Source of the DNA: Heptranchias perlo
Lineage: Eukaryota
Direction: 5' to 3'
Length of the DNA stretch: 64,000 bases
Assembly: GCF_035084215.1 (NCBI RefSeq)
Contig: NC_090332.1
Location: 33,480,001 to 33,544,000, forward strand
Positions 3,001-54,086 of the stretch are shown piece after piece; position 1 is the stretch's first letter, and each line of letters opens with the position of its first letter. The position numbers and the translations under genes are program-made. The notes below the pieces were generated by a model. It saw only the letters and a list, made by a program, of their open reading frames with translations, searched no databases and had not been told where the DNA came from.

Positions 3001-3264
3001 AGCATGTAGCAGAAACAATTTAGTTATACTGGGAGATTTTAATTTTCACATAGACTGGGAGAAGCAGAACAGATCAGGTAATAAAGACAATGGGCCTGAT
3101 TTTAGCAGGCCTGCGGGTTTCCGGCGGGTTGGGTTTCGGGTGCGTGGCCTCCGCGCCCGTTGAAATTAGTGGGTTGCCCGCGCGATCGGAGCAGGCAACA
3201 CACTAATAGGAATCAATTACCTGCTCCTCCGGGCTCCGCGCTGCTGGTCTGCGTGTCGGGCGGG

Positions 3265-3278
3265 CTGCGCATGCGCAG
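3265..3278. promoter_or_regulatory. NRF1-like palindrome upstream of the Myb gene
   Basis: ctgcgcatgcgcag, also intact at 33068-33081. Lies about 30 nt before a TATA-like (ta)tttaaaggggc in a CpG-rich terminus. Confidence 0.45.
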
Positions 3279-3361
3279 TACGATCTGTCAGCTGGAGGCT
3301 CTCTAGTTAAAGGGGCAGTCCTCCACTGACAGATGCTGCAACCACTGGAACAAATTACAGC

Positions 3362-3942
3362 ATGGAGCAGCCCAGGGGGAAGGCTGCTCCCAGTTTAATG
3401 ATGCCTCATCACAGGTATCATCAGATGGGGTGAGGAGGAGGGGGAGGACACAGATCTTCCACCCGGCGGGTGGGAGGAAGCGGCCTGCCTCTGCCACGAA
3501 GAAGGACTGGCTCGAGGTGGCAGAGGGGGTCACCTGCGCCACCAACATATCGCCCACCTACCTACAGTGCAGGAGGCGCTGCAATGACCGCAGTAGGTCA
3601 GCCACAGTGAGAACACGAAGTCTTTCCCCTACACTCCGTCTGCCACAACACTGCCCCCACCCCACATCTCCTTCGGCACCGCCAACACTACTCTGTCACA
3701 TCACCCTTCATACCCACTCAAACCCCATCCTCTTCTTACCTCCACCTACTCACCTCGCCAGTACTCATCCTGCCACTAACACGCAACCCAATCCTCATAC
3801 AATCTCATGGCTCTATCCCATACTCACCCTCTCGTGCATCTCCCTCACGGCTAGCCTCACTCAACCTGCCACCACCTGTGCTGCAGCCACAGGGCATGCA
3901 TCACATATGTGCAGTAGGCAGCGTAAGGCAAACGTGTCGTGA
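3362..3942 (+). pseudogene. Harbinger Myb/SANT-like gene, frameshifted (copy 1)
   Basis: ATGGAGCAGCCC start at 3362, then a 1-nt loss; continues as RRRGRTQIF...ATKKDWLEVAE...QCRRRCND to RQRKANVS stop. Confidence 0.75.
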
Positions 3943-4135
3943 GCATGAAGTGGGTGCACAAGGGTGTCTGAGGGTTTGTCCTGGGTGATACCTATATTGA
4001 ATTTCAGAGCAACAAACATCACACATTATATTGGCACCACCACTGCCATGTCTCCGCGAATCCTGTCCGTTGTGTCCAATAATGCCCGCTCCTGGGAATC
4101 ACTATGAGGACCCACCACTGATGCCACCCATCGTG

Positions 4136-49535: not shown

Positions 49536-50861
49536 CTGGGCTTTCAAATGATATTAAAGAAACTAATGTTGGAATGCTGACTCCAAGAGAACCCTTCAAG
49601 CAGAACTTGCATTAAAAGCTACTGTGCGATAGTTTTGTATGTTTGTAGTTGGAAGTGAAAAGGTGAAAAAGATAATAAAGCAGGATAGTATTAGCTCTGA
49701 GCTTGGGGAAGGCCTGCAGATTCACCTTCTCCTACTCCTTCCATGCTGATAAGCAAGGATTTCCAGGGTAGTCTCCTCCAAGGGAGTCAAGGACTTGTAA
49801 TTTTTAAACCTTCTTCCAGTTCATGCTAGTTCCCTTGTATTATGCGCCATCATGCTTTGCAAACTGAGAAGTCATTGGACATGTTGTAAGTTGAAGGACA
49901 GCACGTACCCAACCAGCAGCCTATCCTATATGTCTATAAGTGACCATGCTTCTAGGTTCTGTTGCAATGATCTTGCATTCAAAGCCCTTTGAAGATATCA
50001 ATATGCCAAGTCTTTCAATTGTAGGTTACAGTTAAAATGTGGGCTCTCCTAGAGTATGGGTATCCATGGCAAACAATAAAAAAGAGCTATAGCATTGTGT
50101 GAGGGTTGGGAATGCATCAGAAATAAACATCAGACAAGTTGAGAGGCAACACTTGTATCAGACATACTTGGGCCATCTAAATGGAAAATGATACTGTTGG
50201 ATATTCTTATCTTGGCAGGTTCCTTAAAGCGTGACATCTTTTTCTACATCAGTTCCTAGGTCCTGTAGGTAGTGTATACAGCACTGACCCTGGCTACCAC
50301 CTACTGCTAGGGATACCACACCACTGTTCTTTAAGGAGGCTGCCCAAACAGGGCCACACTCTTCGTTTGCACCTCATTTTGCCTGCTATCGAACAGGCAC
50401 TGTTCAATCACATACTCAGAGACTCACACAATGAGTCCGGCCTCCACATTCGATTTGTCATCCACTGGTTTTCCCAGCTGCCTCTGTGCTGGGATTGGAT
50501 TTTAAAATCTTTATTTTTTAAAAAAATCGCTGCACTTGCAGCAGGCATAAGGATTCCAGATCCAAAAGTGAATTGTAAATTTGACACCATTTTAAAAAAA
50601 AACTCTACAAGCATTTTCATTCTAAATGTCTACAACACAAACATTACAAAGGAAGGACGTATATAATCCGAGGGCTGGCACTTTGCTCCAAGGGTACATT
50701 CCAAAGGAAACTCCTTTTACTTTACTCCAATGCCACCAGCATCAGAAGCTAAAGTCTTGTATAGTCAATGGAATTGGCAACTGTAAACTACCAACCTCCA
50801 TACAATTGACAGCAGTGGAGACCAGCATTCTGCAGGCCTCCCAATTTTCCGGTGGTTCACG

Positions 50862-51078
50862 TGGATGTTAAAGATCTCATGGCAATATTCGAAGAAAGGA
50901 GGCGTGTTCTCCTGATGTCCTGGCCGACATTGTTTCTCGAACAACTGCTGATTTGTGGGGTCTTCTGTAACTTACCTAACAGTGACTGCACTTCAAAGTA
51001 ATTAATTGCACATGAAGTGCTTTGGGATGTTTCTGAGGACACAATAAGGTACTAAGTAAATGCAAGTTCCTTCTTTTT
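50862..51078 (+). mobile_element. DeuSINE-like SINE 3' part with L2-type tail
   Basis: ggatgttaaagatctcatggca...gactgcacttcaaagtaattaattg...gtgctttgggatg...aaatgcaagttc. Confidence 0.65.
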
Positions 51079-51995
51079 CTCTCCCAAGCAACCTTAAGAG
51101 TCCCAAAATCAGGACCTCCCTAAACTGGTCAGGTTTCTTACTGTCCTTATTTTCTAGGTTACTTTCTCCTTACAATTACTAATAGGTGGTACATATATTG
51201 TCATGAAAATGGCAGTAAGTCACCAATGCCTGGTAACATTCGTAGTGAAGGATTCAAAATTGTGATAAGATTACTACAAGTTATTCGTGAAATAACAGCT
51301 GATTTCTGAGAAATTCCACAATCAACGCAGCCAATATATATTTTTTACATTTTAGATTCTCCATTTTTCCACCAAGTCTGATACAACACTGGTTAGATGC
51401 AAGGTAAAACACCTTCAAACTACCACCACCTCAGAAAAAGCACTCCTTGTGCAACCAATAGGACATCTACATTAACTGAATTCCAATGTCAGAAACATAC
51501 CTTAACAGCAGGCAAGCATTCAGGCACAAGTGCCATTGTCAGCATCGATCTGCATTTGCTGCTAATGGCACTTTACCTCAGAAGGCAGATGTCGAACCCT
51601 GCCCAAGGTGTGCTTCCGTGCTCCCGAAGGTACACATCCTATCAAAAGCAACACTGCAATTTAAAAGTTTGATACATTGTAAAATCGTAAGCATGTTAAG
51701 GGTTGTGGGTTACTGTTAAAATAAATTTTATTCCGTTTAAGAATTTTTTTTTTAAATAAAAAAAATGTAAATTTTATTAAAATCAGTTTAGAACCCTGCA
51801 CGATGTAGTACTGAGCCATACAATCCAGGAACGACCCACATTCCAGCTCTAGTCTGCGCTGAACTAGCCACTCTCAGCCAGAGTGACAGTGGAGACCATC
51901 AAGTTCAGCAGCTCTCTATTAGGGAGAGGGAATAAAAATCAAGGGATCCCACTCCTCCAGTGACTTCTGCTGTAAAGCATGCATGTGGACATCAA

Positions 51996-54086
51996 GGGGC
52001 CGATTTTCGGATGGTCGAGCAGGTGCGTTGGGGGAGGGGGGGCTCCTAAAATGGCGGAATCCCGGAGCAGGTTCGGAGGCCGGCTCCAACCCGCTCACTT
52101 CCGGGTTCCCCAATGACGCGTTCGGGTGCGCGCGCAGCTCCCGCATGCGGGACTCCCACCGGCAATTAAAGCCGGCGGGATGATAATTTAGATAGTTATT
52201 TTGCTAGTTGAGGTACTTGACAGACCTCACTGAGTGGAGATTTTGGCAGGGGTGCAATTTTGAAGGATCCTCAGCATGTTTCCCGTGCTGTGGGAAACAC
52301 TCCCTGTTGCAACAGATGTGTTTCAGCCAGCAGCCAGTGGGAGATGCGAAGGATTATTTGACAGTTGGGGGGAATACCTCATTTATTGCAGCAGGACACT
52401 CTGTCACTTCAGACAAAGTTTTGGCTGCACTCAAAATTCTTAATTTATACTCTAAACTCTGCTTGCAAACACATTTACCTACTTTGCAGACCCCCTCAAA
52501 CTCACACCGTCAGAATGGGGGGGCACCATAGCTGCATTCATTACTTCATACGAGGACGAGCAACATCACCAGCGTCGCCTGGCACGCCGTCCACCTCCAC
52601 CACGTGGAGCTCCACAACACAGTGCTGCGCCACAGGCACCTGCACAAAATAGTCGTGCAACTACACATACACCCACTGTAGGGTGACCCAATGGGTGGCA
52701 TCAAGTGTGGGCGTTCATGGTGAACCTCATGAAAGGGACTTATTACACAAGCCAGCCAAGAATGGCCAAGACGTGGCAGTGGTGGTGACAATAATAATAT
52801 TTAATGTGCCATTAACAAAAATCAAATATAAATAAAAAATGACAAACCATCAAACACCCTTGTGCATCCCCTTTGTGCTCACAAAACCTTTGCCGTACGC
52901 TTACAACTACTCCTATGTGGTGCTTCCCCTGTGACTGCAGCAGAGGTATTGGCAGGTTGCTCTTGGTCATGCCCTGACTGATTAGATGCTTTGGGCCTAT
53001 GCCCTCTGGGTTTCGGTGCCCATGAGGGCCCTTCCAAAGACTGCTCCACCTGCACTTGTGCAGGGGAAGACTCGACCACCTGGAGAGGAGGCAGCATTGG
53101 GGGTACTGGTTGAGAGGGGGCAACGGGTGAGTCGTGGGAACGCTTTGAATGGCATCCCCACTTCCATGTCTCCTTTCGCCATCATCCCTCTCCTGGGCCA
53201 GGTCCACATCACTCCTACCACCCAGTTGGACAACAGTTTGGAGGACATGTGTGAAGCCTTGTAAGGCCAGTGCTAGTTGGCTTGAGTGAGGGATGGTGAC
53301 GTGGTCAACCGCTGAATGCATTAGTTTGGGTGAGACTGACCATGAAAGAGATGCATGAGAGAGTGAGTATGAGACAGAGCCATGACATTGTATGAGGATT
53401 GGGTTGAGTGGTAGTGATGGGATGAGTACTGGGGAGGTGAGTAAGTGCAGGTAAGTTGAGGATGAGCTTTGAGTGGGTGTGAGGAGTGATGTGATAGAGT
53501 AGTGTTGGTATGTACAGAATGAGTTGGGGGGTGGGGGCGGTGATGTGGAAGACGGAGTGTAGGAGAATGAGTAAGTGTACTCACTTTGGCTGACCTAGTT
53601 AGGTCATTGAAGCGCTTCCTGCATTGGATCCATGTGCAGGAGATGTTGCTGCTGCTGGTGACCTCCTCTGCCACCTCGAGCCAGGCCTTCTTGGTGGCAG
53701 AGACAGGCCATTTCCTCCTGTCCGCCGGGTAGAAAATATCCCTCCTCCTCCTCACCCCATCCAGTGAGACCTTGAGTGAGGCATCAGTAAATCTGGGAGC
53801 AGCCTTTCCCCTGGGCTGCTCCATTCTATAATTTTGGTTCAATGCTGCTCCTGCAGCAAAGGAGGACTGCCCCGTTAAGTAGAGCTTCTCCAGCTGACAG
53901 CCTGTGATGCAGGTGCGCAGTTCGCCCACTGCGCAGGTTTCCGACGGGTCAGCAGGAAGCCACGGTAAGTGGTTTCGATTTACCCGCGATCGCGTGGGGA
54001 ACGGACGGATTTCACTGGGCGGGTTACTCACACGCCCAGTCACCCCACCCCTGCTGCTAATCCGCCTCCCTGGTAATATCGGGCCC
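51996..54086 (-). mobile_element. Mini PIF/Harbinger element, copy 6 (type B, complete, inverted)
   Basis: TIRs ggggccgattttc / gtaatatcgggccc, CAA TSD, splits a SINE. The Myb ORF lies within 53321-54133 (-). Confidence 0.92.

Follow-up and report, generated by a model that had tools for sequence, protein, structure and literature searches.

Amplified, doubly deleted Harbinger-type elements in the shark Heptranchias perlo, probably moved in trans by full-length relatives

In the two-protein Harbinger mechanism, the Myb protein binds an element's terminal inverted repeats (TIRs) and the N-terminus of the transposase binds the Myb protein (PMC9392472, PMC2836001). Among PIF/Harbinger elements, the shorter ones are cut out and inserted with higher frequency (PMC10288884), and such a size advantage can favor short copies without any protein of their own. 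An amplified “intermediate class” that bears the Myb gene and lacks the DDE catalytic domain is already in print (2026), in a stronger form than the one found here, from Caenorhabditis inopinata (PMC13668399). Among cartilaginous fish, a 2022 survey reports no Harbinger in the elephant shark and asks for checks of other species (PMC9179366). The present analysis concerns a 64,000-nucleotide (nt) stretch of Heptranchias perlo DNA (NCBI RefSeq assembly GCF_035084215.1, contig NC_090332.1, positions 33,480,001 to 33,544,000), called the window below, and six related segments within it. These copies are, with good probability, non-autonomous, doubly deleted Harbinger-type elements with broken remnants of both genes, moved in trans by full-length relatives without the use of proteins of their own. 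An original prediction, made from the letters of the stretch alone, had described a family that keeps two DNA-binding open reading frames and could supply Myb protein in trans or make repressors: the repeat family is real, and its coding capacity was over-read.

Self-BLAST recovers all six segments where they had been predicted, each 1.3-2.1 kb long and together covering 11,393 of 64,000 bases (17.8%), with copy-against-copy E-values of 0 to 1e-17. Aligned in the direction of the Myb gene, which defines “+” for a copy, they form two families: type A (copies 1, 2, 4, and 5) and type B (copies 3 and 6). TSD denotes the target-site duplication.

Copy 1: 3092..5065, +; type A; both TIRs; TSD AAT/AAT (3089-3091, 5066-5068); the most diverged copy, with a shorter right end.
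Copy 2: 15955..17993, -; type A; both TIRs; TSD AAT on the + strand (ATT in the Myb direction); sits inside another repeat.
Copy 3: ~24187..26186, +; type B; left end (~50 bp with the TIR) lost; right TIR present; single flank TTT.
Copy 4: 32913..~34925, +; type A; TAT beside the left TIR; the right TIR has decayed, and the end (34923-34925) is uncertain.
Copy 5: 47254..48529, +; type A; AGT beside the left TIR; missing both its right end and the start of the transposase.
Copy 6: 51996..54086, -; type B; both TIRs; TSD CAA on the + strand (TTG in the Myb direction).

Copies 1, 2, and 6 have short TIRs starting with G (GGGC.. at both ends), and these three of the six combine a clean TIR pair with a 3-bp TSD (AAT, ATT, and TTG, respectively). 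The prediction had counted four such copies; the count stands for these three, but copy 4 has a decayed right TIR and a TAT duplication that is no more than plausible. No clean TSD is of the form TWA (0/3), nor is any sequence in the full set of duplications and flanks (AAT, ATT, TAT, AGT, TTG, TTT). The pattern ANT fits AAT, ATT, and the single flank AGT, that is, three of the four type A copies; it does not fit TAT, TTG, or the flank TTT. For copy 2 there is also an empty site: the host repeat occurs without the insertion and with a single AAT, the joint of 15954 to 18014 being present in 23 contigs of X1 and 6 contigs of X5. These are public sequencing runs of DNA, used as contigs; two others, X7 and X10, are guessed to be RNA. 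X1 shows 0 differences from the unique flanks in the window, and comes from the same species and possibly the source sample, so it is not independent. Its summed contig depth of 0.6-6.0 million on the element, versus 38-46 on the unique flanks, is to be read as “very repetitive” and not as a copy number.

Convergent to the Myb remnant lies a transposase remnant, corresponding in type A to residues 1-147 of P0001, an H. perlo “putative nuclease HARBI1” that is the closest match (78% identity over 146 aa), and in type B to ~43 codons. Other transposase relatives come from the same species and from Carcharodon, with PF13359 DDE_Tnp_4 further along; no match to the DDE domain was obtained from any of the six copies. 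That the elements moved as units after internal deletion, with loss of this domain, is a part of the prediction that holds, as does the convergent arrangement with one common transposase break, seen in all four type A copies (..SA[Q/R]K before the break, SPA.. after it, at 4172, 16958, 33959, and 48311).

Copy 1 transposase remnant: 4136..4609, -; 157-aa open frame; break after 4172.
Copy 2 transposase remnant: 16516..16994, +; 2-bp insertion, stop 5 aa after the first ATG; break after 16958.
Copy 3 transposase remnant: 25529..25664, -; ~43 codons; frameshift next to the ATG.
Copy 4 transposase remnant: 33923..34390, -; 155-aa open frame; break after 33959.
Copy 5 transposase remnant: 48275..48529, -; distal half only; break after 48311.
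Copy 6 transposase remnant: 52515..52686, +; ~43 homologous codons; frameshift next to the ATG.

As predicted, the frame is free of stops in copies 1, 2, and 4, with a 2-bp frameshift after the first ATG of copy 2, where a second in-frame ATG at 16542 leaves 150 aa; it is open from the first ATG in copies 1 and 4 only. Past the break, no match to the parental C-terminus was found in any frame, and this sequence would be 3′ untranslated DNA. None of five translations of the remnant matched a Pfam family, and a junction-tail protein was seen neither among 103 homologues screened by motif nor in a separate near-length search (2 matches), which is weak evidence. In the AlphaFold model of the full-length transposase P0003 (mean predicted local distance difference test, pLDDT, 86.7), helices are predicted at 138-146 and 150-165; the break corresponds to K155 of P0003, so that 6 of the 16 residues of helix 150-165 would remain, followed by a proline-rich tail. 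In the model of the copy 2 fragment, the three helices upstream persist (pLDDT 88-97) and the helix pair is lost (55-72). Judged from the description of such transposases in PMC4482050 and from our reading of the model, the pair is probably a helix-turn-helix; a Foldseek search with the full-length model returned nothing at E <= 0.001. The retained part is altered as well: F124N is common to all four type A copies and N occurs there in 0/101 homologues, and they further share A126S (7/101 homologues), G128A/P (G in 90/101), and G139D (4/99). Many of the homologues are degraded gene models, which makes this contrast conservative. The transposase N-terminus had in addition been predicted to be a DNA-binding frame, a role for which the published TIR binder is instead the Myb protein (PMC9392472, PMC2836001).

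Of the Myb gene, all six copies retain residues ~31-110 of the 497-aa parent P0008 (exon 1, ~80 of ~467 aa) and a scrap of the 3′ end: residues 366-497 with frameshifts in type B, only the last ~25 codons in type A. Myb/SANT relatives are 440-589 aa long, and the remnants match proteins bearing PF13359 and PF13873.

Copy 1 Myb exon 1: 3362..3606, +; 1-bp deletion; 23 aa to the first stop.
Copy 2 Myb exon 1: 17524..17769, -; ATG lost in a 42-bp deletion; AT at the splice donor.
Copy 3 Myb exon 1: 24391..24633, +; intact; conserved Trp kept; GT donor next; Pfam Myb_DNA-bind_5 37.7 bits (cut-off 21.7).
Copy 3 Myb C-terminal remnant: 24935..25305, +; frameshifted; parent residues 366-492.
Copy 4 Myb exon 1: 33165..33407, +; 1-bp and 2-bp deletions; 20 aa to the first stop.
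Copy 5 Myb exon 1 plus intron read-through: 47500..48081 (exon 47500-47745), +; 193-aa open frame that reaches the native stop.
Copy 6 Myb exon 1: 53585..53824, -; open; conserved Trp kept; GT donor next; Pfam 19 bits, below 21.7.
Copy 6 Myb C-terminal remnant: 52882..53276, -; frameshifted; parent residues 366-497.

Exon 1 ends at a GT splice donor in five of six copies (AT in copy 2). That the donor is a true exon end is supported by P0009 and P0111 (XP_067841007.1, XP_067841005.1), two annotated isoforms of the H. perlo mitochondrial arginyl-tRNA synthetase RARS2 in which the same exon is inserted and has an identical last residue. All six copies have a TATA-like motif upstream of the Myb ATG. 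In copy 3 the exon covers positions 3-74 of the 78 in Pfam Myb_DNA-bind_5. The RTW motif has its Trp in 6/6 homologues and in the two copies of type B; all four type A copies have Cys or Tyr in its place, and the Phe after it is Cys in three of these; in copy 5 both residues, in helix 3, are Cys, and the domain scores 17.7 bits, below the cut-off of 21.7. In a related protein, tryptophans of this kind are reported to be critical to the binding of DNA (PMC5339849). The 193-aa read-through of copy 5 was considered as a gene and rejected: the intron remnant has 20 G in 257 bases, is stop-free in 37% of shuffles, and gives a ratio of nonsynonymous to synonymous substitution rates (dN/dS) of 1.0. 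Its openness is compositional. The frame of the read-through tail also differs between copies 3 and 6 (154 vs. 167 aa).

Taken copy by copy, the claim that two DNA-binding frames are kept fails: none of the six has both frames from their ATGs, the Myb frame being broken in copies 1, 2, and 4, and exon 1 being intact only in copies 5, 3, and 6, each without an intact transposase start. Nor could these copies supply Myb protein in trans as had been proposed, with ~80% of that protein, at least residues 111-365 of P0008, gone from all six.

The two families appear to have been shortened separately. Each has two internal deletions and a retained central island holding the 3′ ends of both genes. 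In the five copies tested, the N-termini of type A find their best parent in P0001 and those of type B in P0002, and this difference points to two parent subfamilies. Both transposase breaks fall on the 7-mer CTGCACA and lead into the same distal sequence; the Myb-side breakpoints differ between A and B. By our own reading, the type A junction fits, at 12 of 14 bases, the pattern deduced for the parent from two reading frames. The deletions may have been guided by microhomology, for which there are precedents (PMC3814204, PMC2213677). In the public runs no loose end at the transposase break was seen among 24 of the more than 4,400 listed, and no listed contig spans the break.

Codon tests were run with masking of transposase codons 1-8 and 16-21 (indel-rich), the non-homologous end of copy 5, and type B codons beyond 36. 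For the transposase remnant of the four type A copies, dN/dS is 0.87-0.93 on three trees (p 0.59-0.79 against 1), and 47 of 63 private changes are nonsynonymous versus 45.0 expected (CpG-stratified). The chance that all four pieces would stay stop-free at their divergence is p 0.11 (0.37 for the intron read-through). The Myb exon carries three frame-breaking deletions in the four type A copies, and its divergence among copies 2, 4, and 5 (6.8-9.1%) is not below that of the intron (3.5-5.1%), both of which argue against constraint on the inserted copies.

The most probable explanation starts from the intact ends and 3-bp duplications, the deletion structures of A and B, the absence of the DDE domain and of the greater part of the Myb gene, and the presence of at least one broken remnant in every copy, and would run as follows. 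Each family would have arisen from its own autonomous subfamily, by excision and then gap repair with template jumps at short homologies, leaving two internal deletions. Shortened copies with intact ends could be moved by Myb protein and transposase made elsewhere. A shortened master would then have amplified while its coding remnants drifted: drift in a master would explain the substitutions common to all type A copies at conserved residues. The inserted copies would finally have decayed in place.

Several points weigh against this explanation. It rests on six copies from one window, with the parents compared as proteins. The same four blocks were kept in two families, which goes beyond chance deletion alone, and exon 1 is open, with its Trp, in both type B copies. 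Myb exon 1 has a dN/dS of 0.50 over the six copies (p 0.003); at ~0.5 (0.50-0.53) it lies below 24/24 non-coding control frames (0.73-1.94), and 51 of 90 changes are nonsynonymous versus 66.0 expected, a count in which fixed A-B differences enter more than once. Resolved type A trees give 0.54-0.57 (p 0.048-0.078), a level to which 1 of 24 control frames also falls. Separated by branch class, the exon has values of 0.45-0.51 for the A-B stem, 0.56-0.58 inside A, and 0.34 inside B, none significant alone (p 0.07-0.16); the type B value (p 0.075) comes from just 13 differences between two copies, and of the 34 changes private to single type A copies, 22 are nonsynonymous versus 24.6 expected (dN/dS 0.70, p 0.21). 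Any purifying selection on the Myb domain is thus a matter of class values from 0.34 to 0.70 that are not individually significant. A star-tree branch test (dN/dS 0.39, type A tips) was set aside: shared sites are counted twice on a star. The low Myb ratio is partly the coding history of two working parents on the A-B stem, though not provably all of it: exchange with parents could carry the stem signal inward, and there may have been real constraint on the exon in some masters. The prediction had itself held that dN/dS near 1 with scattered stops and frameshifts would make the copies plain deletion derivatives; the transposase piece behaves in this way, as does the Myb exon in its frameshifts, but not in its dN/dS.

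What other histories could produce such a locus? The local density, six copies in 51 kb, might suggest local or segmental duplication in place of transposition, but similarity ends at the TIRs, flanks and TSDs differ, and both orientations occur; the distinct TSDs together with the empty site refute it. A single doubly deleted ancestor of A and B, later exchanging segments with different autonomous subfamilies, is a more serious candidate, if still an unlikely one. It would account for the same distal sequence at the transposase break in both families and for the uneven divergence along the element. A and B differ by 8-19% in the intron and 26-42% upstream of the transposase; copy 1 differs from copies 2, 4, and 5 by 10-14% in the Myb exon and 24-33% near the ends (3092-3360, 4610-5065), the interior diverging by 3.5-10% among those three and 10-18% to copy 1. 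Sites split 2:2 among type A copies (element columns only) divide 14/12/13 over the three trees. Copy 1 is possibly a mosaic of subfamilies, since it shares the type A junctions but is far more diverged at its ends. Against one ancestor, the retained N-termini of A and B match different longer parents and the Myb-side breakpoints differ, and the shared 7-mer can explain reuse of the distal site.

The remaining alternatives give the remnants a function. That type A encodes two useful truncated proteins, Myb in trans or a dominant-negative repressor like that of KP, is very improbable, and the model is already largely refuted for its Myb part. In its favor are the transposase frame, open over 150-157 codons in copies 1, 2, and 4 with its first three helices confidently modeled, the Myb-interacting role published for this N-terminus (PMC9392472), by which titration of Myb is conceivable, and the precedent of KP itself (PMC7776569). 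Yet no type A copy has both frames, the Myb protein is mostly absent and its Trp lost throughout, four conserved transposase sites are radically changed, the helix-turn-helix is cut, and with dN/dS ~0.9 the open frames are within chance. A somewhat better case, though still an improbable one, can be made for type B masters in place of type A: a truncated Myb protein, a near-whole trihelix with a tail of junk intron, would have bound the ends as help in cis or as a repressor. The open exon with its Trp, above the Pfam cut-off in copy 3, the dN/dS values within B and overall, and the TATA-like motif would all fit, as would the spread and expression of MADF-only Harbinger derivatives in C. inopinata (PMC13668399). 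Set against this are the two-copy basis of the B signal, the sub-threshold score of copy 6, the tails of different length and frame, the decay of the same exon in family A, which amplified regardless, and the Arabidopsis pair HDP2/HDP1, in which the region linking Myb protein and transposase is C-terminal (PMC5339849), a part missing or frameshifted here. Equally doubtful is that two subfamilies converged independently on one selected design, in which the left end with Myb exon 1 is followed by the central island and then by the 5′ part of the transposase gene with the right end, with the type B Myb exon acting as a stand-alone, end-binding trihelix and the central island stopping convergent transcripts. 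If that were true, the window would hold an amplified protein-coding intermediate between autonomous Harbinger and miniature inverted-repeat transposable element (MITE) in a vertebrate, with non-TWA targets and a Myb exon donated to hosts. It would then offer a naturally occurring separation-of-function allele of the two-protein mechanism and a counterpart of KP in a vertebrate. Elements mobilized in trans by full-length relatives remain the preferred explanation.

The guessed RNA runs, X7 and X10, cover exon, intron, and ends of the element alike and do not cover the unique flanks, and no Myb-intron joint was seen among 15 of the 645 joints listed for them. In X7 the Myb side is ~5-9x as deep as the ends relative to X1, and the DNA run X5 shows the same bias ~2-fold; this was not used as evidence of expression.

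Pieces related to the family also appear in host gene models. The RARS2 isoforms P0009 and P0111 contain a 65-aa in-frame insert that is a type B-like Myb exon 1, likely by exonization of an intronic copy. In the H. perlo models P0002 and P0016, N-terminal sequence of related transposases is joined to an EF-hand protein and to pirin; these are real chimeras or annotation artifacts. Within the window, host exons lie on the minus strand at 43790-44170 and 9851-9946, one with an MIT domain (Pfam PF04212); atlas and PDB searches with them gave just MIT-domain leads or nothing. We take both to be RPS6KC1-like, in which case copies 2-4 would lie in introns of that gene. The Myb exon of copy 6, with its intact donor, lies in the direction of the host exons.

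Other repeats in the window include LINE-like (long interspersed nuclear element) sequences at 5146-6189, 15424-15954, 17994-18491, 42765-43457, and 46022-47255, in or beside which copies 1, 2, and 5 are apparently inserted; they are presumably of CR1 type. A perfect 90-bp inverted repeat with an 11-bp spacer (46966-47156) forms a hairpin-type element within the last of these, ~100 bp left of copy 5, and an end related to it lies at 23207-23287. A further GC-rich repeat has two copies (6262-6568, 40547-41288), of which the latter contains a 50-bp tandem array of 4.5 units. An older fragment of a Harbinger-type transposase, in an advanced state of decay (27-30% identity to P0003, E 2e-6), lies at 48931-49331 (+), immediately right of copy 5. 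Rfam gave 0 matches across the window.

As mobile DNA the family is otherwise ordinary and of modest value: a dense Harbinger-type expansion in shark DNA, with TSDs outside the TWA rule and with related pieces in host isoforms (RARS2, pirin, an EF-hand gene), so that it can inflate annotation and supply exons. Worth following are the dN/dS of the Myb exon, which stays low, the recurrence of the four-block design in both families, the non-TWA targets, and the donation of an exon to host genes.

How does the family compare with described groups? Its TIRs starting in G, its 3-bp TSD, and its remnants of two distinct genes, one for DDE_Tnp_4 and one for Myb/SANT, place it in the Harbinger superfamily in the broad sense (PHIS). 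Strictly defined PIF/Harbinger elements have a TWA TSD (PMC4482050), seen at none of the three clean sites here. The Pangu group has an ANT TSD, a pattern that AAT, ATT, and the AGT flank fit and TAT, TTG, and the TTT flank do not, and a second frame without a known motif (PMC4482050), where the second gene here is Myb/SANT. MITEs span hundreds of base pairs and lack coding remnants; these elements are ~2 kb long with two. A KP-like element would have a frame with its native start and a whole DNA-binding domain: type B exon 1 is open in both copies, but the domain ends at the exon border. No copy has the complete Myb/MADF gene of a MADF-only helper. A literature search, with subscription journals mostly outside it, found no description of this shark family or of derivatives with two remnants; the family may be catalogued in Repbase or Dfam.

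Its nearest relatives are the autonomous Harbinger-type proteins of H. perlo itself (XP_067858713.1, XP_067841588.1, XP_067860716.1) and a Carcharodon “putative nuclease HARBI1,” with 78% identity over 146 aa for the transposase N-terminus and 60-66% for the Myb blocks; these longer proteins, several of them frameshifted gene models, extend beyond the break points to include DDE_Tnp_4 and the middle of the Myb protein. Harbinger-1M_cIno and Harbinger-2M_cIno of C. inopinata (PMC13668399) are likewise amplified, in a 1.6-kb class, keep Myb/MADF, lack DDE, and are moved in trans, but 14 of their 19 MADF loci are intact, they are expressed, a new insertion has been caught, and their TSD is TWA; the shark copies all lack the Myb middle, also keep a transposase N-terminal piece, are 3-18% diverged in the interior, and have TSDs AAT, ATT, and TTG. 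KP and other repressor-coding P elements (PMC7776569, PMC12393704) resemble them in internal deletion, retention of the 5′ part of the transposase gene, and spread; KP, however, makes a 207-aa repressor that binds P DNA (PMC7776569), whereas here DNA binding is the task of a separate Myb protein and the remnants are broken. In the birth of MITEs from Ozma (PMC3814204), related parents likewise gave rise to several non-autonomous families, the breaks falling on microhomologies of 6-8 bp, although Ozma is Tc1/mariner and its products are short and non-coding, in contrast to 2 kb and two deletions in each shark family. The MtPH derivatives of PIF/Harbinger in Medicago (PMC2213677), 0.5-4 kb long with internal deletions, some lacking one reading frame or mosaic, share abortive gap repair and empty sites with our account; they are low-copy and from a plant, whereas in the shark the two derivative structures have themselves been amplified.

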